Shown one piece after another: positions 4,156 to 59,480 of a stretch of DNA of 64,000 nucleotides (position 1 is its first letter; each line of letters starts with the position of its first letter). The DNA is taken from assembly GCA_964195155.1 (NCBI GenBank), contig CAXMOP010000021.1:7007-71006 (forward strand). The letters are read 5' to 3'. Under the pieces are notes generated by a model. It had not been told where the DNA came from. It ran no database searches and saw only the letters and a list, made by a program, of their open reading frames with translations. This DNA is from an uncultured Kiloniellales bacterium. GTDB lineage: Bacteria; Actinomycetota; Acidimicrobiia; Spongiisociales; UBA5794. The position numbers and the translations under genes were made by a program.

Positions 4156-4370
4156 TTCCGTCGCATCCGTTGTCAGGAGCCGAAAATCCTTTGATCCAAA
4201 GGGGAAGTGGCGTGTAGGTCGCACGAATCAAAACACTGAGAGTGTTCAAGATCCGGGTGATGATGGTCGATATTCAGCGTTGAACCGGTGGGACGGCCAG
4301 CGGGGTAAGTTATACCCATTATGCAGGGTGATTCACAGACAGACCTGCATCGGTCTTCCAAGGTTCACTT

Positions 4371-4402
4371 CAGGAGCCCCCGTAAGGGGGCTCCTGCTTT
4401 TG
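4371..4402 (+). terminator. rho-independent terminator (CAGGAGCCCCC-GTAA-GGGGGCTCCTG + CTTTTG)
   Basis: Perfect 11-bp GC stem, 4-nt loop, followed by T-run. Confidence 0.6.
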
Positions 4403-4476
4403 AGTCGCGAGTCGCGAGTCGCGAGGCCCGATCCGACCTTTTTTGCTCGTGTCTCGCGTCTCGCGACTCGCGACTC
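4402..4476. repeat. heptad-repeat hairpin element: (GAGTCGC)x3 ... loop with TTTTTT ... (GCGACTC)x3
   Basis: Inverted arms of tandem 7-mers between convergent genes; right arm ends at permease stop. Confidence 0.8.
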
Positions 4477-6673
4477 AGCTGATAAACCACTGCACCGCTC
4501 GGACCGCTGCGTTCGGTTTCTCCAGCAGCGGAGTGTGAACCAACAGGGCCGGGCAGTCGACCGCCTCGGCGATGCGGTCGGCGAGATCGGTCACCACGTG
4601 GAATCGATGGGTCGGCGCGCCAAGCAGGACCAGGTTGGAGCCGCGTGACAGCTCGGTGAGCGTCGACACCAGATCCTCGGTCGGCCGGATGAGATCGTCC
4701 CACCCAACGGTGAGCACGTCGCCGAGCCGCTCGTGGTATTCGTGGATGGCCTCGGTCTGGGCGTCGGGCGCATCCGGCGCGGTCACGTGCACAAACCGGA
4801 TCGTCGCATCTTCGTAGCGGGCGATGTGATCGGCCATCCCGATCTTGACGGGGTCATAGGGCCCGCCGGTGCCGAGCACTGAGATTGAGTCGATCGAATC
4901 TACCGCCCGATTGCGGAGGAAGACCGAGTCGCACACCAGATGCTCGCGCAGCCATTTCAGGTCTCTCGTCACGGTTCTGGTGGCGCGCAGCTCCTGGGGC
5001 AGGTCGGCGATGAACAGGTCGACGCCCTCGTTTTCCACGTACTGGTGGACCGCCCCGCGCCGATCCTCGTCGGTGTAGTGCGTTGCGGTGACCGCGATGC
5101 CGAGACGGTCGGCCTCTGCCTGGTCGGCGGCGGTAGGGACCAGCCTTGCCGTGGAGGTGTCGAAGTTGATCACGTGGATATGCCCGCCCGGTGCGATGCT
5201 GAGCCGCAGCGCCAGACGAAAAAGCGTGTGTTGCCGGGCGAGCCGTGTCGGTCGTCTGATCAGCAGGACAATGTGTTTGCGTCCCCCCGAGGCGACCTCG
5301 GCTGCGGTGAGATCGACGAGGCGATCATCCGCCCTCCCTCTGAGAGCCTCGCGGGCCGCCGATTCCTTGACGGCGCGAGCCTGCCCGAACCCGCGGTACC
5401 AGAGCACCCCGGCGACGATGAACAACAGGGCACCGACCGTGGGAACGATGCCCATCTGGGTCAGGAGAACGATCGGGGCGATGATCCCGAAGACCTGGAG
5501 CCACGGATACCAGGGGGAACGGAACTCGGGCCGATACCACTTGAGGTCGGCTTCACGAAAGGCGATCAGCGCCAGGTTCACAAAGGCGAACACCAGCAGC
5601 TGGAAGGCAGATGCCAGCTTGGCGAGCTCCAACAGCGGAAGTGTCAGGACGAGCAGGATGAGGACACTGCCGGTGACCAGGATGGCCGCGTATGGTGCGT
5701 TGCTTCGCTCTCCCACCTTGGCGAGGAATCCGGGCGCCAGCGAGTTGCGCGCCATGGCGAGGGGGTATCGGGCCGACGAGATGATGCCGGAGTTCGCCAT
5801 CGATATGAGGGCAAGCACCGCGACGGCTGCCACGACGTAGGTTCCGAAGCTCCCCATGAACTGTTCCGCCGCGGTCAACACCGGCGTCTCGGTGGCAGCA
5901 AGCTCCGATGCGGGAGTCACACCGACCATCACGGCAACGACCGACGGATACAGCACCATCGCAATCGCTACCGAGGTCAGCATGCTCAGCGGGAGGTTTC
6001 GTCCCGGCCGCTTGACCTCTTCTGCGACGCTTGCCACCTGGGTCACTCCGATGTAGGAGACGAAGACGAGCCCGGTCGCGGATAGCAGTCCCTTCAGCCC
6101 GTGGGGCAGGAAGGGGTCGTAGCGGAAGCCCTCGGTGTTGGGCACGCCGAGGAACACGAACCCGGCCAGCAGCAGGAGGACGACGGTGACGAGCACGGCC
6201 TGGAACCCTGCTGTTTCCTTGACACCGATGAGGTTGATGGCGATGAGGACGACGGCGATCGCGGCGGCGACGAGCCGCTCATCATGCTCGAAGAAGAATT
6301 CCAGATATGCAGAGAGGCCAACGAGAGCGAATGCAGCTTTGAAGACCAGCGACGACCAGACACCGAACCCGGCAATCGTGCCCATGAGCGGACCCATGGC
6401 CCGGTCGATGTAGACGTAGGTGCCGCCGGATTGGGGCATAGCCGTGGCCATCTCGGACTGTGAAAGGGCAGCGGGAATCACCACGAACCCGGCGAGAAAG
6501 AACGCCAGGATGACCGCCGGTCCTGCGATCGTGAACGCGAGACCAGGGAGCACGAAGATGCCGGAGCCAATCATGGCGCCGACCGAGATGGCCAGCACGC
6601 CATAGAGGCCGAGGCGGCGCTGCAGGACCGCGCTGGTGAATGCGGCTGGTTGCGGCTCGTTCCCGTTGTTCAA
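4475..6673 (-). CDS. APC-family amino acid permease fused to C-terminal tandem universal stress protein (UspA) domains
   Basis: N-terminal 12-TM region typical of APC permeases (GSGIFVLPG), C-terminal ~280 aa with Usp-like blocks. Confidence 0.85.
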   Translation of the reverse strand: MNNGNEPQPAAFTSAVLQRRLGLYGVLAISVGAMIGSGIFVLPGLAFTIAGPAVILAFFLAGFVVIPAALSQSEMATAMPQSGGTYVYIDRAMGPLMGTIAGFGVWSSLVFKAAFALVGLSAYLEFFFEHDERLVAAAIAVVLIAINLIGVKETAGFQAVLVTVVLLLLAGFVFLGVPNTEGFRYDPFLPHGLKGLLSATGLVFVSYIGVTQVASVAEEVKRPGRNLPLSMLTSVAIAMVLYPSVVAVMVGVTPASELAATETPVLTAAEQFMGSFGTYVVAAVAVLALISMANSGIISSARYPLAMARNSLAPGFLAKVGERSNAPYAAILVTGSVLILLVLTLPLLELAKLASAFQLLVFAFVNLALIAFREADLKWYRPEFRSPWYPWLQVFGIIAPIVLLTQMGIVPTVGALLFIVAGVLWYRGFGQARAVKESAAREALRGRADDRLVDLTAAEVASGGRKHIVLLIRRPTRLARQHTLFRLALRLSIAPGGHIHVINFDTSTARLVPTAADQAEADRLGIAVTATHYTDEDRRGAVHQYVENEGVDLFIADLPQELRATRTVTRDLKWLREHLVCDSVFLRNRAVDSIDSISVLGTGGPYDPVKIGMADHIARYEDATIRFVHVTAPDAPDAQTEAIHEYHERLGDVLTVGWDDLIRPTEDLVSTLTELSRGSNLVLLGAPTHRFHVVTDLADRIAEAVDCPALLVHTPLLEKPNAAVRAVQWFIS

Positions 6674-6716: not shown

Positions 6717-8054
6717 TTACCGGCTGAGGGTCCGCGGTTGGTTGCGCGCCTCCCGACCGGCTTCGACGTCGACAAAGGACAGGACGACGGCGCCGATAAC
6801 GAAGAAGATCGCCAGGAACAGGATGGCGAGCCGCGAAGAGCCGGTGGCAATGCCCACCGCGGCAAAGATCAGGGGCCCGAAGATCGCCGAGAATTTGGAG
6901 AACACCGAGTAGAACCCGAAGAACTCGGCCGAGGCGTCCTCGGGGATCATCGACGCATAGAGGGAGCGAGAGAGTGCTTGGACACCGCCGAGGACTAACC
7001 CCGCTAGGGCGCCGACGCCCAGGAATCCGAGCGGCTGCTCTGCTGGGAGCAGATATGCCGCGACGGCGACGCCGACCCAGCCGGCAATCGAGACCATGAT
7101 TGCTCGCTTGGTCCCCGTTACGCCTGCCAGCCATCCGAAGACGAGCGCCCCGACGAATGCGACCAGCTGGATGACGACGAAGGCTGCGGCAATGGCCGTC
7201 GCGTCGAGCAGCAGCGTCTCGGTTGCGTAGACCGGGGTGATCCGGATCGCGGTCGACACGCCGTCGTTGTAGAACAGGAAGGCGAGCAAGAACAGCGCGA
7301 GCTGCTTGAACGCCAGCACGCTTCGGGTGGTCTGCACGGTACGGCTGAAGCCGATCCTGACATACGCAGGGATGGGCCGGTCCGGCGTCTCCGGCAGCTC
7401 GGCGCGGTCGCCGGCGCGTGGCAGCCGGGTGAAGGCGAAGGCGCCGAAACCGGCCCACCACAATCCGGCGGAGGCGATGACGACGCGCTCCGCGGTCTCG
7501 CCCACCCAGGCGTTCTGGTCGGCGTAGAGGAGCAGCGCTACCGCCAAGATCAAGTGGAGGCCGCCTCCGGCGTAGCCGAGTGCGAAGCCTCTTGCCGATA
7601 CCCGGTCCACGGTATCTGGTGTCGTGATCTCGGGCAGAAACCCGTCGTACATCACGTTGGCTGCGGCGAATCCGATCTGGGCGACGAGCGCCAGCACCAC
7701 GGCGAACACGAGATCGCCGGCACCGGGCAGTGCGGTGAGGACGGCGAATGCAGCGCCCGTATAGGCAAAGAACCGCAGCAAGGTCAGCTTGCGGTCGGTG
7801 TAATCGGCAATCGCCCCGAGCACCGGCATGGCGATGAACAGCAGCAGCGCCCCGAGGCCGATGACGATGCCGAAGAAGGCCTCGGCGCCGATCGTGGTCC
7901 CGCCGATCGTCAAACCATCGGTCGGGTAGATGACATCGGAGAAGAGGATGGCGAAAACGAGGCTCCCGGCCGTGATGTAGGCCGAGTTGGCCCAGTCGTA
8001 CATCGCCCATCCGAAGATGGTGCGTTTGTCGTTGCGTATGTCGTTGGAAGCCAT
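6717..8054 (-). CDS. MFS transporter (UMF1/Atg22-like family)
   Basis: N-term MYDWANSAY motif, 12 predicted TM helices. Confidence 0.8.
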   Translation of the reverse strand: MASNDIRNDKRTIFGWAMYDWANSAYITAGSLVFAILFSDVIYPTDGLTIGGTTIGAEAFFGIVIGLGALLLFIAMPVLGAIADYTDRKLTLLRFFAYTGAAFAVLTALPGAGDLVFAVVLALVAQIGFAAANVMYDGFLPEITTPDTVDRVSARGFALGYAGGGLHLILAVALLLYADQNAWVGETAERVVIASAGLWWAGFGAFAFTRLPRAGDRAELPETPDRPIPAYVRIGFSRTVQTTRSVLAFKQLALFLLAFLFYNDGVSTAIRITPVYATETLLLDATAIAAAFVVIQLVAFVGALVFGWLAGVTGTKRAIMVSIAGWVGVAVAAYLLPAEQPLGFLGVGALAGLVLGGVQALSRSLYASMIPEDASAEFFGFYSVFSKFSAIFGPLIFAAVGIATGSSRLAILFLAIFFVIGAVVLSFVDVEAGREARNQPRTLSR

Positions 8055-9316: not shown

Positions 9317-10381
9317 ATGTCTCTCGCTACCGAGATACCGATCCCCAAAGCGTTGGACGACGCGTTCGCCAAGGAATGGTCGTTCCTGGCTGCACCAGGA
9401 ACCTGGTTCTCGGGCGGGGAACGGGTGGAGATCGCCGCCGAGGCACGAAGGGCAATGACCGAATCCCTCTCCGATGACAGGCGTGGAGCTCAGGCAGTCA
9501 GCGGCGAGCCGAGTGCGAGCCGCCCGGAAAGAATGGCCGGCGAGCCGGCCGGCGAGGGCCTCCCTCCAGCCCTGCGTGACGTGGTTGACATGGTCGCGTC
9601 ATCGTCGCCGTTGATCGACGCCGATTGGGTTGCTGGTCTCGATGAACGGAACGTGACTTTGCCCGCCTATGCCGAGATCATCGGCATCGCCTCCCGAATG
9701 TCGGCGGTTGATTTCTTTCACCGTGCGTTGGGCCTTCCCCTCCCGCCGCTGCCGGAACCACAGGCCGGGGAGCCGACCCTTCTTCCGCCGCCGACGGATC
9801 TCATTGTCGGGAAGTCCTTCCTGCCGATGGTGCCACCGGTGAGCATTCCGCAGACCATCTCGCTGGTCCCGCCCGAGACCCAAGCCTGGCAGGCGTTGTC
9901 CGACGCGACCTACATGACCTTCGACGAGATGGGCGATCCCGATCTTTCTCGATCGCTCCACCGCACGCAGATCGAGCTCGTCGCCGCACGAACGTCGCAG
10001 GTCAACGAGTGCTTCTACTGAGTGTTGGCGCATGCATCGATGCTCAGTTGGAGTGCGCAGAACATGGGAATCGCCTGGGATCCGAGGTCGATCACCGATC
10101 CGAGCGTTGATCCGCTGCTGGCGGGCGGGCGCGAGCTCGTTGGCTTTGTCGATGCCGCCCACGGCTCGGAAGACGATGTGCTGGCCTCGGCGCGGGCTGA
10201 GCTGCGCGCTGCGCTCGGTGATGCGGCCACGGTGGAAGCGGCCGCCGTGCTCGGCAACTTCAACCAGATGAACCGCCTCGCCGACGCCACCGGCATGCCG
10301 GTAGGCCCCGGATCAATGCGCCACTCCGAGCAGCTGCGCGCCGCCACCGGGATCAAGCGCTTCCACGCCCATACGCCCTAA
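9317..10381 (+). CDS. carboxymuconolactone decarboxylase/AhpD-like protein with in-frame UGA (candidate selenocysteine) at 10019-10021; alternatively pseudogene
   Basis: Two ORFs (9317-10021, 10022-10381) are in the same frame separated only by TGA; reading through gives ...SQVNECFY-U-VLAHASML = AhpD core motif xNxCxxCxxxH with U at second Cys. Confidence 0.5.
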
Positions 10382-10385
10382 GGAG

Positions 10386-10540
10386 TCTTCAGTCGTCAGT
10401 CCTGAGTCATCAGCCAGAGTCGGACGGGCGATGACTGATGACTCCAAAGTCCACAGTCTTCCGTCCACAGTCTTCAGCCCGAAGGTGCGCTTGTCCTTCC
10501 CGCCCACCCTCTGGCTGACTGATGACTGATGACTGATGAC
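10386..10540. repeat. long-range inverted repeat built of TGACTGA-type heptads (tcatcagccagag ... ctctggctgactgatgactgatgac) with internal direct repeat ccacagtctt x2
   Basis: Arms 10386-10420 and 10510-10540 are reverse complements (13/13 core). Confidence 0.65.
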
Positions 10541-10546
10541 TTTCTC

Positions 10547-10583
10547 TTGACACCTAGGTTGTCTTAGCCTAGATTGTCTAGGT
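10547..10583 (+). promoter_or_regulatory. padR promoter (-35 TTGACA 10547-10552, 17-nt spacer, -10 TAGATT 10570-10575) with overlapping operator-like repeats; leaderless start
   Basis: Sigma70-like hexamers; ATG of padR ~8 nt after -10; direct/inverted TTGTCTAG / ACCTAG...CTAGGT repeats across the spacer. Confidence 0.4.
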
Positions 10584-10922
10584 ATGAGAGGGCAGGCGCT
10601 GAAAGGGCATCTCGACCTACTGCTGTTGGCGGTCCTTGCCGACGGTGCCAGGCACGGGTACGCCGTGATCGACGACCTCAGGGAGCGCAGCGACGACACG
10701 TTCGATCTCCCCGAGGGAACGGTGTATCCCGCGTTGCATCGATTGGAGAAGGGCGGCTATCTGAGCAGCGAATGGTCGGTGGTGCAGGGAAGAAGAAGGC
10801 GCACGTATCGGCTGACGGATCGGGGCCGGGGTGCGCTTGGTGAGCAGCGCCGTGCTTGGGGCGAGTTCTCGGATGCGGTGGCCAGTGTGTTGAAAGGATC
10901 CCCGTGGCCGACTACGTCTTGA
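10584..10922 (+). CDS. PadR family transcriptional regulator
   Basis: HGYAVIDDL...GTVYPALHRLEKGGYL winged-helix PadR signature. Confidence 0.9.
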   Translation: MRGQALKGHLDLLLLAVLADGARHGYAVIDDLRERSDDTFDLPEGTVYPALHRLEKGGYLSSEWSVVQGRRRRTYRLTDRGRGALGEQRRAWGEFSDAVASVLKGSPWPTTS

Positions 10923-13118: not shown

Positions 13119-13364
13119 ATGAACATCTTCGTAGGGAACCTTCCGTTCTCAGCGACGGGCGGGGAGCTAGAAACGCTCTTCGGCGAATATGGGGCGATCG
13201 ACTCCGCAGCCGTGATCAACGATCGTGAGACCGGTCGGTCTCGCGGATTCGGCTTCGTCGAGATGACGGATTCAGCGGAGGCGAACAAAGCCATCGAGGA
13301 GCTCAACGGCTACGAACTCGACGGTCGTCCACTCACCGTTAATGAAGCAAGGCCACGGCGGTAG
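13119..13364 (+). CDS. RNA-binding protein, RRM domain (Rbp-like)
   Basis: RNP2 IFVGNL and RNP1 RGFGFVEM motifs. Confidence 0.9.
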   Translation: MNIFVGNLPFSATGGELETLFGEYGAIDSAAVINDRETGRSRGFGFVEMTDSAEANKAIEELNGYELDGRPLTVNEARPRR

Positions 13365-13369
13365 CCAGC

Positions 13370-13594
13370 TTGGCCAGAGGTGACGACACTTTCCGTACCC
13401 AGGGGACCATCGTTGAGACCCTGAGGAACGCGGAATTCCGTGTCGAGCTCGATTCCGGCCTGGAGGTCATCGCCAGAGCATCTGGGAAGATGCGGCGTGG
13501 CCGAGGGATCCGGATCATTGCCGGCGACAAGGTCGAGGTCGAGGTGTCAGCCTACGACCCGACCAAGGGCCGGATTGTCTGGCGGCATCGGTAG
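13370..13594 (+). CDS. infA: translation initiation factor IF-1
   Basis: S1-like fold sequence GTIVE...FRVELDSG.EVIARASGKMRR..IRIIAGDKVEVEVSAYDPTKGRIVWR; TTG start 6 nt after RRM stop. Confidence 0.85.
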   Translation: MARGDDTFRTQGTIVETLRNAEFRVELDSGLEVIARASGKMRRGRGIRIIAGDKVEVEVSAYDPTKGRIVWRHR

Positions 13595-13639
13595 ACAACA
13601 GTCGCGAGTCGCCAGTCGCGAGCCACGAGTCATAAGGAA

Positions 13640-13661
13640 GGGGCGGCCAAGAGGCCGCCCC
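13640..13661 (+). terminator. terminator hairpin GGGGCGGCC-AAGA-GGCCGCCCC followed by TTGACTTGT
   Basis: Perfect 9-bp GC stem after infA. Confidence 0.55.
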
Positions 13662-13681
13662 TTGACTTGTAGCCTTACCGC

Positions 13682-25690: not shown

Positions 25691-26122
25691 ATGACATCGG
25701 CAACTGAGCAGGAGATCCACTTCGTGAGCTACGGACCGGCGCGCTCTGTCGATGCGCACGACGCTGACGCCGGCGGCCACTTTGCTCTGTGGCTGTTCGG
25801 GATCTTCGGCGCATTGTTGATCGTGGCCGGGCTCTGGCTGTCGTTCGCTCCGTCGAGCGGCGAGCTGTCGGTGGGCTTCATCACCTTCGACGTCACCGAG
25901 ATCCCCGAGCTACTCGGACCCGGCCTTCTCATTGCCGGGGGAGCGATCCTCGCCGGATCCATGTTGTCCGGGGCGTGGCGAGACTATTGGTTCGATGAGG
26001 GCTGGCTGATGGTGTCGCTTCAGGGCGTCATCGGCGTCGTCGGACTGGCCGCATTAGTGCTCGGGGTGCTCGGCATCCTCGACCGGCTCGACCTGTACAG
26101 CCTCCCCGGCCTCCCGATCTGA
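25691..26122 (+). CDS. hypothetical membrane protein
   Basis: 4 hydrophobic helices. Confidence 0.5.
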   Translation: MTSATEQEIHFVSYGPARSVDAHDADAGGHFALWLFGIFGALLIVAGLWLSFAPSSGELSVGFITFDVTEIPELLGPGLLIAGGAILAGSMLSGAWRDYWFDEGWLMVSLQGVIGVVGLAALVLGVLGILDRLDLYSLPGLPI

Positions 26123-26127
26123 CTGCG

Positions 26128-26559
26128 ATGAGAACTCGTCCACCCCTCGACGAGCTTCGCCGAATCTACGCGGACAGCAAGACGATCGCGGTGGTGGGCG
26201 CCTCTCCCGATCCCGAAAAGCGCGCCCATGTCGTTCCCGCCTACCTCCAGGAACAGGGGTACCGGATCATCCCGGTGAATCCCAGGCACGAGGAAGTGCT
26301 TGGCGAGAAGGCCTATCCAACCCTGCTCGACATCCCCGAGCCCGTCGATGTCGTCGACGTGTTCCGCCCAGCAGACGAGGCGCCCGGCATCGCAGAAAAC
26401 GCCGCCGCCATCGGTGCCGGCGTACTGTGGCTCCAGGTCGGCATCGTCTCGGAGGAAGCAGGCGAGATTGCCGCTGCGTCCAACATGAGCTTCGTCATGG
26501 ACCACTGCATGGGCATGATGCACGCCAAGCTCGGCCTCGGCCCGGGACCGGACCACTGA
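26128..26559 (+). CDS. CoA-binding domain protein (YccU-like)
   Basis: KTIAVVGASPDPEKRAH...YRIIPVNP. Confidence 0.8.
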   Translation: MRTRPPLDELRRIYADSKTIAVVGASPDPEKRAHVVPAYLQEQGYRIIPVNPRHEEVLGEKAYPTLLDIPEPVDVVDVFRPADEAPGIAENAAAIGAGVLWLQVGIVSEEAGEIAAASNMSFVMDHCMGMMHAKLGLGPGPDH

Positions 26560-26562
26560 GTC

Positions 26563-26640
26563 AAGAGTCGCGAGTCGCGAGCCTGACTTCCGGCTCTGGA
26601 CTCTCGACTCCGGACTCAGGACTTTTCCAGCGCCAGCTCC
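26563..26640. repeat. heptad/hairpin repeat element (GAGTCGC x2; CCTGACTTCCGG...CCGGACTCAGG)
   Basis: Between convergent CoA-binding and lon genes. Confidence 0.6.
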
Positions 26641-28928
26641 AAGACTTGCGTGATGTCGTCCGACGGATGGAACTGCATGGCCTCACGGATCGAGTCCGGC
26701 AACTCGTCGAGATCATCGGCGTTGCGGACGGGGAGGATCACCTCATCGAGGCCGGCCCGGTGCGCGGCAAGCACCTTCTGCTTGACCCCTCCGATCGGCA
26801 GCACCCTTCCCTGCAGGGTCAGCTCCCCGGTCATCCCGACCGTGTCCCTGACCTTCCTGCCCGTGAACAGGCTGACCAGGGCCGTCGTCATCGTGATACC
26901 GGCAGAAGGCCCGTCCTTCGGGATTGCCCCCGCAGGCACATGGAGGTGAATCGCCTGGTCGAGCTGATCGGCATCGATGCCGAGCTCGGCTGCGTTGGAA
27001 CGGACGTACGACAAGGCGATCTCGGCGGATTCCTTCATCACGTCTCCGAGCTGGCCGGTCACGGTGAGCTCGAGATTGCCCGGCATCGCTGATGCCTCGA
27101 CGAACAGCACGTCACCACCGGCACCGGTGACGGCGAGTCCGGTTGCTACGCCTGGCACCCGGGTGCGATCTCCCGCCTCGTCCCGGAACACGGTCGGCTT
27201 GCCGAGCAGGTCGACCAGTTCGGTCTCCGTGACGTCGACGGTGACGGTGTCGTCGGTGGCGATCTTCATCGCGCTCTTCCTCGCCAGCTTCCCCAGGGTG
27301 CGCTCGAGCCCGCGTACTCCGGCTTCCCGGGTGTAGCTCTCGATGATCGTGGCCAGCGCCTCGTCGGACACGGTGACCTCGTCGGATTCGAGCCCGACGC
27401 CGCGTAGCTGCCTCGGGAGCAGGTGGTCGCGGGCAATGTCGACCTTCTCCTGGTCGGTATATCCGTCCAAGCGGATCACCTCGGTACGGTCGAGGAGCGG
27501 TCCGGGGATCGACTCGATCACATTCGCCGTGCCGATGAACAGCACGTCAGAGAGGTCGAGATCGAACTCCAGATAGTGATCGCGGAAGGTGTGGTTCTGT
27601 GCAGGATCGAGCACCTCGAGCAGCGCCGAGGACGGATCTCCCCGCCAGTCGGCCCCAACCTTGTCCATCTCGTCGAGGAGAAACACCGGGTTCATCGAAC
27701 CGGCATCGGCAAGGGCTCGCGCAATTCGGCCCGGCCGCGCCCCGACATAGGTGCGGCGGTGACCGCGTACCTCGGCCTCATCGCGAATGCCGCCGAGGCT
27801 GACCCTGACGAACTCGCGGCCGAGCGCGTGCGCCACCGACTCCCCAAGGGAAGTCTTTCCCACCCCGGGAGGGCCCACCAAGAGCAGGATGGCGCCGCCT
27901 CCGCGCCGGTCGTCGGTGGAGTCTTCAACGCCGCGCTCCTTGCGCAGCTTTCGCACCGCGAGGTGTTCCACGATGCGCTCCTTGACGTCGCTCAACCCCG
28001 TGTGATCGGCGTCGAGGACGTCCCTGGCCTCGCCGAGGTCGAGGTGGTCGGTGGTGTGGACACCCCACGGCAGCTCGAAAACGGTGTCGAGCCAGGTACG
28101 CACCCAGCCCACCTCAGGGCTCTGGTCGTTCATCCGCTCCAGCCGATCGATCTCGCGTTCGACCGCCTCGGCGACGGTCTCGGGGAGGTCGGTTTCGGTG
28201 AGCTTCTGGCGGTATTCACCGACGACGGATTCGGACTCCTCGCCGAGCTCCTTGCGCAGCGACTCCATTTGCTGTCGGATGATGAACTCGCGCTGGGTCT
28301 TGTCGATGCGCTCGGTAGCGTCTTCGCGGACACGGCGGCGCAATTCGATGTCGGCAAGGACGGCGTTCATCATGTCGAGCGCCAGCGTGATCCGTTCGTG
28401 GACGTCGGTCGTCTCCAGGACCTTGACCTTCTCGGCGGTGCTCAGGTCCGGAGAATGGACGAGGAGGTCCGCGAGCTGACCGGGGTCATCGGATGCGAGG
28501 ATTCGGTCGGCAATCCCGGCGATGCCGCGATGGTCGAGGATCTCGCTGACGACGGTGCGGAATTCTTCGGCAAGTGCCAGCGTTTCGTCGCTGTGCTCGA
28601 GGGGCTCGTCGACCGGCATCGCCTCCACCCAGAGCACCTCTCCGCTGCTTGGCTGGCCGGCGCCGATACGGGCGCGTGAGACCCCCGAGATCAGCGCGGT
28701 CGTGCCCTCTCCGGTGGACACCTCTTGGATCTCGGCGATCGTGCCGACGCTGGCATACTCGCCGTTGACCTGGGGGACGAGCAGTAAGCGACCGTTGCTG
28801 TTCTCGGCGGCCGCGATGGCCTGCTTGGCTTCGTCGGATTCGATGGTGACCGTGACCACCATATGTGGGAACACGACCCCGCTGCGGAGGGGAAGGACGG
28901 GCAGTGTTGTTGTTGTGAGGTCCGCCAT
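26616..28928 (-). CDS. lon: ATP-dependent Lon protease
   Basis: LON N-domain, AAA+ Walker [10 protein letters not shown], protease Ser motif [11 protein letters not shown]; ATG 28928 preferred over GTG 28952 that lies in repeat. Confidence 0.92.
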
Positions 28929-28945: not shown

Positions 28946-29019
28946 GAGTCACGAGTCACGAGTCGCGAGTCGCGAGCCAATCCCGCAATTCTCGCGACTC
29001 GCGACTGGCGACTCGCGTC
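28946..29019. repeat. heptad-repeat hairpin (GAGTCAC/GAGTCGC x4 ... CTCGCGACTCGCGACTGGCGACTCGCG)
   Basis: Inverted arms upstream of lon. Confidence 0.8.
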
Positions 29020-30295: not shown

Positions 30296-30548
30296 TTTCT
30301 TTGCCTCCCCCTCAGGGGGAGGTGCCGAGCGCCAGCGAGGCTGAGGGGGTCAAGGCGTTGTCGCGACCACGGTTTGACCCCCCTCCCCGCCTGCGGCGGG
30401 ACTCCCCCCTGGGGGGGAGCAACGAGAACGCCGCGGCGGTGAGCCCAACGATCGTCGTACTGTCGCGAAACACGACACCCTTAGGGGAGGCAAAGAAGTC
30501 GCCTCACAAGCGACGGGAGGAAACGGGCGGGGAGGGGGCTTAGCGCTG
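30296..30548. repeat. GC-rich multi-hairpin repeat, family C locus 1 (CCTCCCCCTCAGGGGGAGG...GGGGGTCAAGGCG...TTTGACCCCCC...GGGACTCCCCCCTGGGGGGGAG...)
   Basis: Shared with 39285-39605 and 59040-59400. Confidence 0.85.
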
Positions 30549-36210: not shown

Positions 36211-36300
36211 GCCAGTAGCTAAGTAGCTGAGTAGCCAAGTAGCCAAGTCCTGGTCAACGGCTTTCCTCTTTTCTTCGCTACTTCGCTACTTGGCTACTGC
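36211..36300. repeat. heptad-repeat hairpin (AGTAGCY x5 ... CTACTTSG x4)
   Basis: Inverted arms in divergent promoter region. Confidence 0.75.
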
Positions 36301-36309
36301 CTACTATCG

Positions 36310-36325
36310 TCGAACGTATGTTCGA
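36310..36325. promoter_or_regulatory. LexA/SOS box TCGAAC-GTAT-GTTCGA (inside 15-bp perfect IR 36301-36334), overlapping helicase start codon
   Basis: Exact match to actinobacterial LexA consensus TCGAAC-N4-GTTCGA. Confidence 0.65.
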
Positions 36326-39284: not shown

Positions 39285-39605
39285 GGCATCAGGGGGAGGT
39301 GCCGAGCGCCAGCGAGGCGGAGGGGGTCAAGGCGTGGTCGCGGCCACGCCTTGCGGCGGGACTCCCCCCTGAGGGGGGAGCAAAGAAAGGGCCGCGGCGC
39401 CACGGCTTTACCCCCCTCCCTTCTCGGGAAGGTGGCGACAACAGCGAGGTGGCTTCTTTGCCTCCCCCTCAGCTCAGGGGGAGGTGCCGAGCGCCAGCGA
39501 GGCGGAGGGGGTCAAGGCGTGGTCGCGGCAACGGTTTGACCCCCCTCCCCGCCTTGCGGCGGGACTCCCCCCTTGAGTTGAGGGGGGATCAAAGAAAGGG
39601 CCGCG
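39285..39605. repeat. family C GC-rich multi-hairpin repeat, two tandem units
   Basis: CATCAGGGGGAGGTGCCGAGCGCCAGCGAGGCGGAGGGGGTCAAGGCGTGGTCGCGG... x2. Confidence 0.85.
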
Positions 39606-44449: not shown

Positions 44450-44632
44450 GAGTCGCGAGTCGCGAGTCGCGAGCTATGACCGAATCGCTTCTCGATACAG
44501 AACTCGCGATCAGGCAGTCGGGCGGCGAGCCCCTGCGAGCCGCCCAACAAACATGACCGAATCGCTTCTCGATACAGAACCCGCGATCAGGCAGTCGGGC
44601 GGCGAGCCCCTGCGAGTCGCCCATGGGAATGG
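44450..44632. repeat. (GAGTCGC)x3 heptads followed by two tandem copies of ~72-nt family D unit (ATGACCGAATCGCTTCTCGATACAGAACYCGCGATCAGGCAGTCGGGCGGCGAGCCCCTGCGAGYCGCCCA)
   Basis: Direct comparison 44474-44552 vs 44553-44632. Confidence 0.85.
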
Positions 44633-44670: not shown

Positions 44671-45654
44671 ATGCGCTATGGAGCTTTCATCCCGCAGGGC
44701 TGGCGTCTCGACCTCATGGGCATCGACCGCCACGAGCAATGGCCGACAATGCTTGCCGTCGCAAGAGACATCGAGGCCGCCGGTTACGAATCGCTGTGGG
44801 TGTTCGATCACTTCCACACGGTCCCGATCGGCACACAGGAGTCCAGCTACGAAGCATGGACGCTGATGGCGGCCCTTGCCGCCACCACCGACACGGTGAG
44901 AATCGGTCAGATGTGCACATCGATCGCGTACCGCAACCCGGCCTACCTGGCGAAGATCGCGGCGGACATCGACGTGATCTCCAACGGCCGTCTCGAGATG
45001 GGAATCGGCGCCGGCTGGTACCAGGAGGAGTACGACGGCTACGGCTACGACTTCCCCAAGCCATCGGTACGCATCGGGGAGCTCCAGGAGGGCGTCGAGA
45101 TCATGCGCCGGATGTGGACCGAGGACGAGGTCGAGTACGACGGGAAGTACTTCACGCTCCACGGTGCGATCGCGAATCCGAAACCGATCCAGGGATTGCT
45201 GCCGATGTGGATTGCCGGCGGCGGCGAGCAACTCACCCTCCGTGTCGCTGCCAGATACGCCGACTACACAAACTTCGGGCTCGAGCTCGACGCCTTCGCG
45301 CATAAGAGCGAAGTGCTTGCAGATCACTGTCGGGCGGTCGGACGAGATTTCGACGAGATCGTGCGTTCGGTGAACTTCACCGTGCTCATCGACGAGGATC
45401 AGCAGGTCGTCACCGACAAGCTCGACGAGATCGAGACACGGATGACGAAGCTGGTCGGCGCCGAAAAAGCGGAGCGAACGCGAGCCACGTACGAGAAGCA
45501 CGGGCTCATTGGCACACCGGACCAGATCATCGAGCAGCTCGGCCCCTGGCAAGACGCCGGGATGCGCTACATCATCGGTTACTTCCCCGACGCCGCCTAC
45601 GACCGCACCAGCCTCGATCTGTTCGCGAAGATCAGTAGATCAGTAGCTGAGTAG
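44671..45654 (+). CDS. LLM-class F420-dependent oxidoreductase
   Basis: MRYGAFIPQGWR...ESLWVFDHF. Confidence 0.85.
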   Translation: MRYGAFIPQGWRLDLMGIDRHEQWPTMLAVARDIEAAGYESLWVFDHFHTVPIGTQESSYEAWTLMAALAATTDTVRIGQMCTSIAYRNPAYLAKIAADIDVISNGRLEMGIGAGWYQEEYDGYGYDFPKPSVRIGELQEGVEIMRRMWTEDEVEYDGKYFTLHGAIANPKPIQGLLPMWIAGGGEQLTLRVAARYADYTNFGLELDAFAHKSEVLADHCRAVGRDFDEIVRSVNFTVLIDEDQQVVTDKLDEIETRMTKLVGAEKAERTRATYEKHGLIGTPDQIIEQLGPWQDAGMRYIIGYFPDAAYDRTSLDLFAKISRSVAE

Positions 45655-45750
45655 ATCAGTAGCTGGGTAGATCAGTGTCTGCCTTAGCTACTTGGTCTGC
45701 CTTAGCTACTTGGCTACTTCGCTACTTCGCTACTGCTTCGCTACTTCGGT
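45630..45750. repeat. heptad/octad-repeat hairpin (GATCAGTAGM x5 ... CTACTTSGC x6)
   Basis: Inverted arms of tandem units; left arm encodes last codons of LLM. Confidence 0.75.
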
Positions 45751-51049: not shown

Positions 51050-51101
51050 CCGTTCTTGCGTAGCGTGATCCGGTATACCGGATGTGGCTACGCAAGAACG
51101 G
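51050..51101. repeat. hairpin with stem CCGTTCTTGCGTAGC/GCTACGCAAGAACGG enclosing palindrome ATCCGGTATACCGGAT
   Basis: Same stem as 11810-11859. Confidence 0.75.
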
Positions 51102-51116
51102 TCGTGTCGCCTCTTC

Positions 51117-51141
51117 ACAAACGAACGTTCGTTTGTATAAT
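51117..51141 (+). promoter_or_regulatory. paa operon operator candidate: 20-bp perfect palindrome ACAAACGAACGTTCGTTTGT overlapping -10 TATAAT (51136-51141)
   Basis: Perfect dyad immediately upstream of RBS GAGGAG and paaA GTG start. Confidence 0.5.
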
Positions 51142-53241: not shown

Positions 53242-53702
53242 TGGCCAGCGCCATCGACGAGCTGCTCGCTGCGGTCGTCGACCCGGAGATCCCGGTGCTC
53301 ACGATTGCCGACCTCGGCGTCCTGCGAGGGGCTTCGGTCGACGAACACGGCGTGGTCACGGTGACGATCACCCCCACCTATTCGGGGTGCCCGGCAATGG
53401 GCGTCATCGAGGAGGACATCGTGTCGACCCTCGAAGCCGGCGGATACGACCAGATCGTGGTGCGCACGACCTTCAGCCCGGCCTGGACCTCGGACTGGAT
53501 GAGCGAAGAAGCCAAGCGGCGACTGAACGAATACGGCATCGCCCCGCCACAGCAAGTCGGGAGCACACCCGAGCCCGTGTTGTGTCCGCAGTGCGCAGCG
53601 CCGGAAACCAGGCTCGTTGCCGAGTTCGGCTCCACGGCCTGCAAGGCGCTGATGGTGTGCAGCTCGTGCGCCGAGCCCTTCGACCACTTCAAAGCAATAT
53701 GA
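53241..53702 (+). CDS. paaD: phenylacetate-CoA oxygenase subunit PaaD (Fe-S assembly SufT-like)
   Basis: DUF59 N-term + CxxC...CxxC C-term. Confidence 0.8.
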   Translation: MASAIDELLAAVVDPEIPVLTIADLGVLRGASVDEHGVVTVTITPTYSGCPAMGVIEEDIVSTLEAGGYDQIVVRTTFSPAWTSDWMSEEAKRRLNEYGIAPPQQVGSTPEPVLCPQCAAPETRLVAEFGSTACKALMVCSSCAEPFDHFKAI

Positions 53703-53798
53703 GTCGCGAGTCGCGAGTCGCGAGTCGCGAGTTACGAGTCGCGAACGACTCGTCGCTTGTCATGCTCGCGTCTCGCGTCTCGCGACTCGCGACTTCTC
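53703..53798. repeat. heptad-repeat hairpin (GAGTCGC x5 ... GCGACTC-type x4) inserted between paaD and paaE
   Basis: Direct reading; both arms intragenic-operonic. Confidence 0.85.
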
Positions 53799-55495: not shown

Positions 55496-55530
55496 ACGCC
55501 GGCCCGCGACTCTGGACTCTCGACTCTCTC
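55496..55530. repeat. short tandem GACTCTN heptads (CGACTCTGGACTCTCGACTCTCTCT)
   Basis: Direct reading. Confidence 0.6.
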
Positions 55531-58960: not shown

Positions 58961-59480
58961 GGCTCGCGGGGGCTCGCCGCCTGACTGCCTGATCTTGCGT
59001 TCTCTGCTGCGAAGCAATTCGGTGTGCGTACACCGAGGCCGTCGCCCTCTCCTTTTGCTCCCCACTCAGGGGGGAGTCCCGCCGCCAGGCGGGGAGGGGG
59101 GTCAAACCGTGGTCGCGAGAAGCGCTTTGACCCCCCTTCGCCTCGCTGCGCTCGGCACCTCCCCCTGAGGGGGAGGCAAAGAAGCCGCCTCGACGGGGGG
59201 AATACCGCCGGAGAGTGGAGGGGGGTCGAGGCGTGGCGCCAGGGGCCCCTCTCCTTTTGCTCCCCCCTCAGGGGGGAGTCCCGCCGCCAGGCGGGGAGGG
59301 GGGTCAAGGCGTGGTCGCGAACAACGCCTTGACCCCCTCCGCCTCGCTGCGCTCGGCACCTCCCCCTGAGGGGGAGGCAAAGGAGTCGCCTGGCGTCCTC
59401 GGTATCGCCGCCACTGAATTGCTTCTCGCTCGAGAGCTCGCGATCAGGCAGTCGCCGCCGAGCGGACTGCGAGGCGGCCA
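58961..59480. repeat. composite repeat island: inverted family D copies (58961-59028 and 59412-59480) flanking two family C units in reverse orientation (59040-59400)
   Basis: Direct sequence comparison. Confidence 0.8.

Follow-up and report, generated by a model that had tools for sequence, protein, structure and literature searches.

Between the genes of the bacterial contig CAXMOP010000021.1 (assembly GCA_964195155.1) lie numerous short tandem repeats with units of 7 or 8 nt, here called heptad arrays (octad arrays where the unit is 8 nt), and these are the subject of this report. We analyzed a window of 64,000 nt (positions 7,007 to 71,006 of the contig, forward strand; coordinates below are counted from its first letter). 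The gene map combines genes called on near-identical public contigs with two translations. It covers positions 1-56363, of which 86.1% is coding and 13.9% non-coding, and ten heptad loci are dispersed through the non-coding DNA of these 56 kb. The neighboring genes, among them lon, rmuC, uvrD, a hisA-like gene, and the paaABCDE cluster, share no common functional theme.

Arrays of period 7 or 8 were called with Tandem Repeats Finder (TRF), using cut-offs of at least 2.8 copies and a score of at least 40. The window holds 14 such arrays, against none in each of 30 dinucleotide-preserving shuffles. A preliminary description of this DNA had placed tandem 7-8-nt repeats at ten sites, and TRF finds 7- or 8-nt arrays at every one of those ten coordinates; the heptad arrays are real and non-random. 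Their bases are essentially all intergenic, overlapping the ends of open reading frames (ORFs) by only 2-26 terminal nt, and the repeats of period 6, 9, 12, and 15 reported by TRF lie inside ORFs. The unit family comprises GAGTCGC, GAGTCAC, AGTCATC, GACTCTN, and AGTAGCYA, with an AGTC/AGTA core and octamers included. Three other identities were rejected: coding repeats, because the period-7/8 arrays are intergenic; a CRISPR array, because the units are 7-8 nt long and contiguous without spacers, as opposed to 24-48-nt repeats with unique spacers; and G-quadruplex formation, because no unit in the window has a run of three G.

The arrays are excluded from coding sequence, reach right up to stop and start codons, and are oriented by a strict rule relative to the flanking ORF. 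Array starts fall 0-7 nt past the stops at 10381, 13594, 26559, 45654, and 53702; array ends fall 3-20 nt ahead of the starts at 36211, 36318, 28928, and 53799; and two stop codons, at 4475 (permease) and 26616 (lon), are overlapped by arrays. It is important to remember that such repeats mislead ORF finders, which place starts and C-termini within them. All reading frames of GAGTCGC arrays are free of stop codons, so mechanical ORFs extend into the arrays, just as the preliminary description had noted: the lon ORF reaches 28952 (called start 28928), an LLM ORF reaches 36246 (called start 36211), and an LLM end at 45654 overlaps the array at 45629-45676.

At seven of the ten sites an inverted-repeat scan finds the arrays in inverted pairs (the hairpins of Table 1). 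Folded as RNA, these seven reach -39 to -73 kcal/mol (z scores -4.9 to -7.8), and not one of 200 shuffles gave an equally stable fold; where both strands were tested, this was true of each. The unit varies from locus to locus, but within a locus the 3' arm is always the match of the 5' arm. At these paired sites an imperfect stem-loop of 25-40 bp can form in a transcript of either strand or in extruded DNA. The arrays at 13600, 44450, and 55507 are unpaired, and two of them are without significant structure. The architecture originally proposed for every site (n heptads, a short loop, n reverse-complement heptads) thus stands at seven of ten sites and falls at those three; moreover, the loop is not short in the composite hairpin at 10384, where the arms (10384 and 10516) are ~100 nt apart and the intervening "loop" holds further heptads. 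Self-complementarity within the unit is high for GAGTCGC, which is TCGCGA plus one base (6/7, top 10% of heptamers), and for AGTAGCTA (6/8). Most other units are only average in this respect, and the quasi-palindrome idea accounts for only part of the picture. An Rfam scan of the whole window gave nothing at gathering thresholds; around 4402 it gave only sub-threshold matches to miRNA-precursor models, which any long hairpin gives.

Table 1. Heptad and octad arrays of the window, with their units, predicted RNA folds, and flanking genes (I numbers are those of the inverted-repeat scan)
Positions	Strand	Type	Units	Detection	Fold (kcal/mol; z)	Gene context
4402-4476		heptad hairpin	5' arm (GAGTCGC)x3.4 at 4402-4425; 3' arm CTCGTGT/CTCGCGT/CTCGCGA at 4446-4476	TRF; I2, arms 90% complementary	-55.1 (+ strand), -49.2 (- strand); z -7.8 and -6.6	between convergent ABC transporter (stop 4155) and amino-acid permease (stop 4475-4477, overlapped by last unit)
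10384-10541		composite heptad hairpin	AGTC-NNN 10384-10422; inner GATGACT + AGTCYNC; 3' arm (TGACTGA)x3.7 10516-10541	TRF, I7	-70.4 (10391-10540); z -6.3	begins 3 nt past stop (10381) of 113-aa gene; ends 6 nt before promoter-like TTGACA-17-TAGATT (10547-10575), itself 9 nt before PadR ATG 10584
13600-13631	+	single array, AGT form, without inverted partner	AGTCGCG x4.6, 80% matches	TRF	significant fold at 13601 derives from neighboring GC hairpin, not from array	begins 6 nt past stop 13594 of infA-like ORF; separate GC-rich hairpin follows at ~13639-13665
26557-26623		heptad hairpin	5' arm GAGTCAA/GAGTCGC; 3' arm GGACTCT/CGACTCC/GGACTCA	TRF	-42.6 and -42.8; z -6.1 and -6.6	between convergent CoA-binding gene (stop 26559) and lon (stop 26616-26618, within last unit)
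28946-29019		heptad hairpin	5' arm GAGTCAC x2 + GAGTCGC x2; 3' arm CTCGCGA units	TRF, I4	-46.6 and -51.4; z -6.6 and -7.3	between divergent genes, 18 nt upstream of lon ATG (28928, - strand) and 162 nt upstream of rmuC (29181)
36214-36298		octad hairpin	5' arm (AGTAGCYR)x4.4; 3' arm (CTTCGCTA)x3.2	TRF, I22	-39.1 and -40.0; z -5.8 and -5.5	occupies divergent gap from LLM ATG (36211, - strand) to uvrD ATG (36318)
44450-44473	+	single perfect array, without partner	(GAGTCGC)x3.4	TRF	none significant; z -1.0	- strand: (GCGACTC)n 13 nt upstream of hisA-like ATG 44437, with GGGAG Shine-Dalgarno; + strand: ends 3 nt before first ATG of 77-bp tandem unit
45629-45748		octad/16-mer hairpin	5' arm AGTAGATC/AGTAGCTG 45629-45676; 3' arm CTTAGCTA/CTTCGCTA 45683-45748	TRF	-53.4; z -4.9	covers final 26 nt of LLM gene (stop 45654); 53 nt from its end to usp (45801)
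53701-53794		heptad hairpin	5' arm (GAGTCGC)x6.3; 3' arm CTCGCGT x2 + CTCGCGA x2	TRF; I3, arms 93% complementary	-72.7; z -7.7	occupies entire 96-nt gap from paaD stop (53700-53702, overlapped by first unit) to paaE ATG (53799), inside paaABCDE cluster
55507-55528	+	single array, ACT form, without partner	CGACTCT/GGACTCT x3.1	TRF	none significant at 55496/55507; z +1.6	between tetR stop (55444) and DUF427 start (55611)

All seven pairs in the window share one polarity, with AGT and never ACT in the 5' arm and the reverse in the 3' arm. As the pairs are inverted, this AGT-first polarity is true on both strands. The single arrays obey the same rule: the AGT form stands 6 nt after the infA stop, and the ACT form stands 13 nt upstream of the hisA-like start, on the sense strand, and also upstream of DUF427. 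Of the seven bases of GAGTCGC, just one distinguishes the AGT form from the ACT form (TCGCGA+G vs TCGCGA+C).

The same unit and the same polarity recur far beyond this lineage. A search for exact (GAGTCGC)3+GAG in one genome per species returned at least 104 loci in at least 11 phyla, cultured strains and closed chromosomes included, against ~0.004 matches expected in random sequence of equal size (our own estimate). Among the matches listed, Gemmatimonadota are the most frequent; others are from Acidobacteriota, Planctomycetota, Actinomycetota, Chloroflexota, and Bacteroidota, with further matches in Patescibacteria, Armatimonadota, Myxococcota, Pseudomonadota, and WS1, and the GC content of the loci ranges from 0.34 to 0.74. 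Please note that loci selected by one unit sequence are a biased sample of heptad arrays. With the searched array excluded, period 7 is the commonest in the first 80 of these loci (n=133), ahead of periods 9 (n=81), 12 (n=57), 8 (n=48), and 6 (n=36), and many of the period-7 arrays are inverted pairs of other units, such as GAGGGGA/TCCCTTC, GAAGGAGG/CCTTCCCT, and AAACGGT/CCGTTCA.

Across the 104 loci listed, the AGT or G-rich arm comes first in 43 of the 44 classifiable pairs (43:1, binomial p 5e-12), and leaving out the pairs that include the searched array gives 19:1. Single arrays follow suit when scored against crude ORFs filtered on third-position GC content (GC3): the G/AGT form stands just after a stop, on the sense strand, in 44 cases with 10 opposite (p 3e-6), and the C/ACT form just before a start in 30 with 11 opposite (p 0.004). 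Relaxed hairpin patterns in the fetched loci found the AGT-first order in five independent cross-phylum loci (L039, L052, L074, L112, and L118; public contigs and loci are cited here by L numbers) as well as in the contigs of the window's strains, and the ACT-first order only in L141, which had itself been selected for that order. L141, a zero-loop perfect palindrome, was also the one locus that a strict ACT-first pattern found in a metagenome scan, a count that is uninterpretable alone, as the strict AGT-first pattern misses even the window's hairpins; the 0 matches for both strict patterns in viral contigs are uninformative. Strict polarity on both strands (AGT or G-rich 5', ACT or C-rich 3') suggests that the underlying constraint reads a single strand, as an effect at the RNA level or one coupled to transcription would.

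Near-identical contigs retrieved by exact-protein look-ups represent eight or more independent assemblies (ENA, JGI, Logan, and the NCBI metagenome-assembled genome [MAG] GCA_964194755.1). They are 99.6-100% identical to the window, with 0.93 mismatches per kb over 324 kb aligned, and all carry the arrays, which excludes the assembly artefact that the preliminary description had allowed for. That description had also put forward variation in copy number between strains as a point to check, and it is found at four arrays: +14 nt (two units, 5' arm) at 4402 in strain L008, +7 nt at 28946 in L019, +7 nt at 44450 in L024, and -7 nt at 53701 in L025. These are four of the 14 distinct indel events, in arrays that make up ~1.4% of the sequence, and all four are exact multiples of 7; the strains are phylogenetically non-independent, so the indel rates are rough estimates. 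The length changes hit perfect GAGTCGC runs, one arm at a time. Expansion and contraction take place in situ and by whole units, the outcome expected of slippage during replication or repair.

Other differences among the strains lie outside the heptads: L005 stops aligning past ~11.2 kb, L006 has a 14-nt deletion at 9742, and L017 a 10-nt insertion at 25840. A separate 77-bp tandem unit (44476-44623; 1.9 copies, 97% identical) starts 3 nt after the (GAGTCGC)3 array at 44450. Each copy opens with ATG and reads as an upstream ORF of 25-30 aa with a stop that overlaps the next ATG (ACATGACC). L023, L025, and L026 appear to have an extra copy, with 340 nt vs 263 nt between the hisA-like and LLM genes, and several short assemblies break at this unit. 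In the public assemblies L033, L054, L062, L072, L075, and L103, the contigs end exactly at heptad arrays; short-read assemblies thus commonly break at these repeats, and we recommend caution with copy numbers taken from MAGs.

The nearest named homologues of the window's Lon, at ~70% identity, are from Acidimicrobiia MAGs. From this single protein, a host that is actinobacterium-like, more precisely Acidimicrobiia-like, is a reasonable inference, in agreement with the impression of the preliminary description. The syntenic contig L138 (Lon 85% identical) abounds in arrays of heptads and octads whose units are different: CAAGTAG/TTACTTG, CAAGTCG/TACTTGC, GTCGCAA x12, ACCAGTAG/CTTCGCTA, CTTGCGA x10, and ATCAGTAG x10. 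The window has arrays at just two of the seven array sites of L138, both flanking lon, and at the same two sites L137 (Lon 86%) has short degenerate heptad remnants. No heptads were found in the relatives with 72-75% Lon identity (L139 and L140). A stem-loop of some kind nevertheless follows lon in all five relatives, heptadic in three and non-heptad in L139 and in L140, where it is an ordinary GC stem (z -6.7). Individual arrays therefore turn over quickly, and the hairpin at that gene end persists.

A second dispersed intergenic repeat family, non-heptadic, lies at 30304-30322, 39290-39600, and 59050-59390. Its appearance recalls repetitive extragenic palindromic (REP) elements or miniature inverted-repeat transposable elements (MITEs), with 100-300-bp composites of palindromic modules (CCTCCCCCTGAGGGGGAGG; GGGGGGTCAAGGCGTGGTCGCG...CGCCTTGACCCCC) and six pattern matches in the window vs 0.07 expected, and it sits at two window sites where L138 has heptad arrays. 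Among the heptad hairpins themselves, the 3' arms at 4446-4476 and 53765-53794, which belong to unrelated hairpins, are near-identical 30-mers with the variant units in identical order, two inner GCGTCTC and two outer GCGACTC. The center-flipped variant GAGACGC also occurs in a Gemmatimonadales genome (L051). The shared arms and this variant may reflect convergence or gene conversion between arrays.

What the arrays do at gene ends was described in the preliminary account as bidirectional termination between convergent genes, often beside a classical terminator, with further sites in divergent promoters. The surroundings agree with this only in part. Two of the ten sites are convergent (4402 and 26557), three are indeed divergent (28946 between lon and rmuC, 36214 between LLM and uvrD, 44450 between the hisA-like gene and LLM), and five are co-directional. 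A classical terminator accompanies one site alone: 4371-4396 with CTTTT, the sole convincing one in the window, is a separate element directly 5' of the 4402 hairpin. Classical terminator-like sites are not enriched in the window (11, 12, and 13 vs 10.5, 10.0, and 8.7 expected from shuffles), and the scan catches no more than fragments of two arrays, at chance level. Nor do the heptad hairpins have the form of an intrinsic (L-shaped) terminator, a short GC stem with a 3-8-nt loop and a T/U-run. Hairpin terminators without a U-tract are called I-shaped, and the heptad hairpins resemble these in being intergenic or intercistronic stem-loops, many of them between convergent genes or in operons. 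With two convergent sites in ten, no T-runs, and three arrays that are not hairpins, terminator function is possible at some sites and cannot be the general explanation. The placement of 10384-10541, from a stop codon to a promoter-like site, is the position expected of an insulating 3' hairpin. The start codons of lon, LLM, uvrD, and paaE each have a predicted hairpin directly upstream (the lon ATG at 28928, - strand, is preceded by AAGAAAGGAC), and these hairpins may lie in untranslated regions (UTRs).

Several neighboring features deserve a brief mention. The ABC transporter gene is followed by 215 nt of non-coding DNA, at the end of which stands the terminator 4371-4396; with a possible promoter, TTGAAC...TAAGTT, the stretch 4280-4401 may encode a small RNA of ~80 nt, for which Rfam gives only a weak sub-threshold match to sX12 (E 0.055). 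Promoter-like -10 elements end 7-10 nt before the PadR and uvrD starts (10547-10584 and 36302-36318), so close that leaderless mRNAs are suggested in this organism. An operator of the HspR/HAIR type upstream of lon was rejected: CTTGAGT occurs at the edge of the array, but ACTCAAG is absent 7 nt downstream. The infA-like (IF-1) ORF, ~13373-13594, has no ATG start and is uncalled in the near-identical assemblies L006 and L007; it directly follows the gene (13119-13364) for an RRM-type RNA-binding protein of 81 aa, and the two are also neighbors in the relative L137. Directly after the gdh stop lies a palindrome, near-perfect and spacer-free, whose arms are 26 nt long (51050-51101); it is followed, upstream of paaA, by the best promoter-like site of the window (TTCACA-16-TATAAT, 51114-51141), and this palindrome is a candidate operator for a regulator of the paa cluster.

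Our preferred interpretation, to which we give a probability of about one half, is that the arrays are slippage-prone repeats whose transcripts form stem-loops at gene boundaries and act there at the RNA level. After a stop codon, such a stem-loop would be a 3' hairpin without a U-tract that might make RNA polymerase pause or terminate, act as a barrier to 3' exonucleases, or shield the promoter that follows. Within operons and 5' leaders, the long double-stranded stems could serve as RNase III-type processing targets whose strength is set by copy number, by analogy with the hmw1A locus of Haemophilus influenzae, discussed below. A number of points weigh against this interpretation. The arrays at 13600, 44450, and 55507 are unpaired and have no significant fold of their own, and no T-run or U-tract was found after any heptad hairpin in the window. 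One of the strongest hairpins, that inside the paa operon, and the three in divergent promoter or leader regions cannot be covered by a single terminator role. Only two of seven sites are common to the relative with 85% Lon identity, which speaks for weak or no selection on individual sites, and no regulatory role was found for the analogous repeats of Xanthomonas (Rehm et al., PMC4692102). The polarity is left unexplained, and with GAGTCGC forms one base apart, arguments from composition are weak. Termination, processing, and stabilization are all functions that we infer for this organism.

The main rival holds that the arrays are a non-functional by-product of mutation, which we consider doubtful; models based on binding sites or on mobile elements are less likely. 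As a by-product, slippage would run wherever selection allows it, in non-coding DNA, the partner arms would come from template switching, and the hairpins would be useless. The rapid turnover of sites among close relatives (2/7 common) speaks for this view, as do array lengths that are polymorphic among near-identical strains, neighbor genes without a functional theme, arrays that fill any available gap up to codon boundaries, and the lack of a regulatory effect in Xanthomonas (Rehm et al., PMC4692102); the dominance of period 7 in many unrelated genomes would likewise fit a general property of polymerases. It has more trouble with the core common to the units within a genome (all 5' arms have AGT and all 3' arms ACT), which random slippage does not predict, and with an identical 24-mer in at least 11 phyla, partner arms that always match, and a stem-loop kept after lon in all relatives, even after loss of the heptads. 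For polarity it would appeal to purifying selection against harmful orientations only, such as Shine-Dalgarno-like purine-rich repeats near starts, but a ratio of 43:1 requires strong uniform selection or a directional mechanism.

Periodic binding sites are an improbable alternative: an oligomeric RNA-binding protein would read (N)AGU each 7-8 nt, or an oriented DNA-binding protein would read GAGTC-type sites. Periodic recognition has analogues in HutP, which recognizes UAG-N4, and TRAP, which recognizes GAG/UAG triplets. All 5' arms in the window, and those of L138 (CAAGTAG, ATCAGTAG), do consist of AGT and a variable 4-5-nt spacer; polarity is strict even where the forms differ by a single base; and MacGregor proposed that S1, Csp, or CsrA binds TAACTGA repeats upstream of starts (PMC4679880). 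However, heptad units of other phyla often lack AGT (GAGGGGA, GAAGGAGG, AAACGGT), so no single factor fits all, and the analysis yielded no candidate protein. Unit sequence and copy number drift fast, and in RNA most arrays, being paired, would form double strands, where arm pairing would compete with binding of the factor. Copies of a mobile palindromic element spread by a transposase, either of the REP and bacterial interspersed mosaic element (BIME) kind or MITE-like, are a far more remote prospect. The hairpins are dispersed, intergenic, palindromic, and of high copy number, two of the 3' arms (4446-4476 and 53765-53794) are near-identical 30-mers, and the octads contain GTAG and some heptads CGTC, the tags of the REP super-families (PMC3733652). 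Against this, REPs are single 20-40-bp palindromes and not tandem heptads (PMC3733652), the heptad hairpins have no terminal inverted repeats, target-site duplications, or fixed element length, and the window's true REP/MITE-like family looks quite different. We rejected this identity for the heptads on the basis of their locus-specific units, loops and flanks unrelated among loci, length changes by whole 7-nt units at fixed sites, and lack of target duplications.

The gene-boundary interpretation can be taken a step further. The occurrence of the GAGTCGC unit, with polarity pointing away from the flanking ORF, from Patescibacteria to Actinomycetota, in units able to form G-quadruplexes or not, would fit a single cross-phylum system, built or selected by a conserved process that reads one strand, instead of scattered slippage products. 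We think this unlikely. Such a system might be a bidirectional signal for termination or processing that is independent of a U-tract, or a repeat-generating mechanism dependent on transcription and RNase III, as suggested for hmw. If it were true, convergent heptad hairpins would be a general, length-tunable gene-boundary signal in bacteria without canonical terminators. STRRs, discussed below, have been recognized since 1990 and heptanucleotides as the commonest long simple repeats since 2007, and their role is understood at one Haemophilus locus only. The window supplies a well-replicated natural population of near-identical strains that differ by whole repeat units, in an unrelated high-GC lineage whose unit family is incapable of forming G-quadruplexes.

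Intergenic heptanucleotide simple-sequence repeats are an established class of element, and the heptad arrays fall into it; they are not a new type. According to Mrazek (2007, as cited in PMC4679880 and PMC4692102), heptanucleotides are the most abundant long simple-sequence repeats (LSSRs) in most prokaryotic genomes, and polymerase slippage was proposed as their origin. The window's arrays have the properties by which LSSRs were defined there: a head-to-tail unit of 5-11 nt beyond chance length, units that are not multiples of three only in non-coding DNA, and whole-unit changes in copy number between close genomes. A full-text literature search for GAGTCGC returned only primers and unrelated sequences.

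The short tandemly repeated repetitive sequences (STRRs) named STRR1-3 have the units CCCCAGT, TTGGTCA, and CAACAGT. As STRRs were described for heterocystous cyanobacteria (Mazel et al. 1990, as cited in PMC4692102), they are dispersed, non-coding, tandem heptanucleotides. The window is like them in having tandem heptamers at many non-coding loci and several unit families per genome; it is unlike them in unit sequences and in phylum, and the definition of STRRs does not include the hairpin architecture of inverted pairs. The resemblance to STRRs drawn in the preliminary description holds at the level of the class, and convergent inverted pairs are known from Xanthomonas and Nostoc (PMC4692102).

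These last two are the closest counterparts. Rehm et al. (2015) found each Xanthomonas genome to hold ~185 arrays of the GGGAATC type, and Nostoc PCC 7120 to hold arrays of GGGGAYT, ~90% intergenic and usually of 3-6 units, with 70-75 convergent pairs per genome that are capable of forming stem-loops; the arrays are mostly transcribed, and their length and sequence vary among close relatives (PMC4692102). Tandem intergenic heptamers, convergent inverted pairs, and the same polarity relative to genes are common to those repeats (PMC4692102) and ours: the convergent pairs and the anchoring of arrays to the ORF that lies 5' on the G-rich strand are both found here (7/7; 43:1; singles 44:10 and 30:11). 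Unlike them, the window's units (GAGTCGC, AGTCATC, AGTAGCYA) have no G-tract and form no G-quadruplex, a structure emphasized in PMC4692102, and the window has octamers and an Acidimicrobiia-like host. The present data are evidence that the orientation rule of the G-rich repeats is general (43:1, at least 11 phyla) and therefore independent of G-quadruplexes, which narrows the explanations to those that read a single strand.

TAACTGA arrays of 2-6 units are intergenic in marine Beggiatoaceae, cyanobacteria, and Bacteroidetes, mostly a few nt upstream of start codons in regions without a canonical ribosome-binding site (MacGregor 2015, PMC4679880). They share with the window the ACT on the sense strand, as in the form that precedes start codons here, and the occurrence across phyla (PMC4679880). 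Unlike the window's arrays, they are almost all direct (169 direct sets, one inverted) and form no hairpins, with one unit sequence per genome (PMC4679880). REP elements are 20-40-bp palindromes with a GTAG or CGTC tag, mobilized by REP-associated tyrosine transposases (RAYTs) (PMC3733652). Like REPs and BIMEs, the heptad hairpins are intergenic or intercistronic stem-loops, often between convergent genes or within operons, for which a role in stopping transcription or protecting upstream mRNA has been proposed (PMC3733652). Unlike them, the arms are tandem, the unit is locus-specific, the loops are unrelated, and the length changes in 7-nt steps, with no conserved palindrome; and no RAYT (Y1 transposase) gene was found among the called genes of the 64-kb window and its flanks.

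The only experimentally dissected mechanism for such an element is that of hmw1A. At hmw1A/hmw2A of H. influenzae, (ATCTTTC)n is transcribed into the 5'-UTR as one arm of a long imperfect hairpin whose stem is cut by RNase III (Rapun-Araiz et al. 2025, PMC12721329). Copy number tunes expression in an inverse relation, and transcription and folding of the repeat are needed for its copy number to change (PMC12721329). In common with the window are a heptanucleotide arm of a long hairpin and a pyrimidine-rich form on the sense strand upstream of a start; unlike the window, hmw is a single virulence-gene locus subject to phase variation, with a G-rich, non-repeat second arm and at least 11 units (PMC12721329). 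Set beside all these systems, what is new here is the AGTC/AGTA-core units, octamers included, the Acidimicrobiia-like host, and a polarity that is kept in units unable to form G-quadruplexes.

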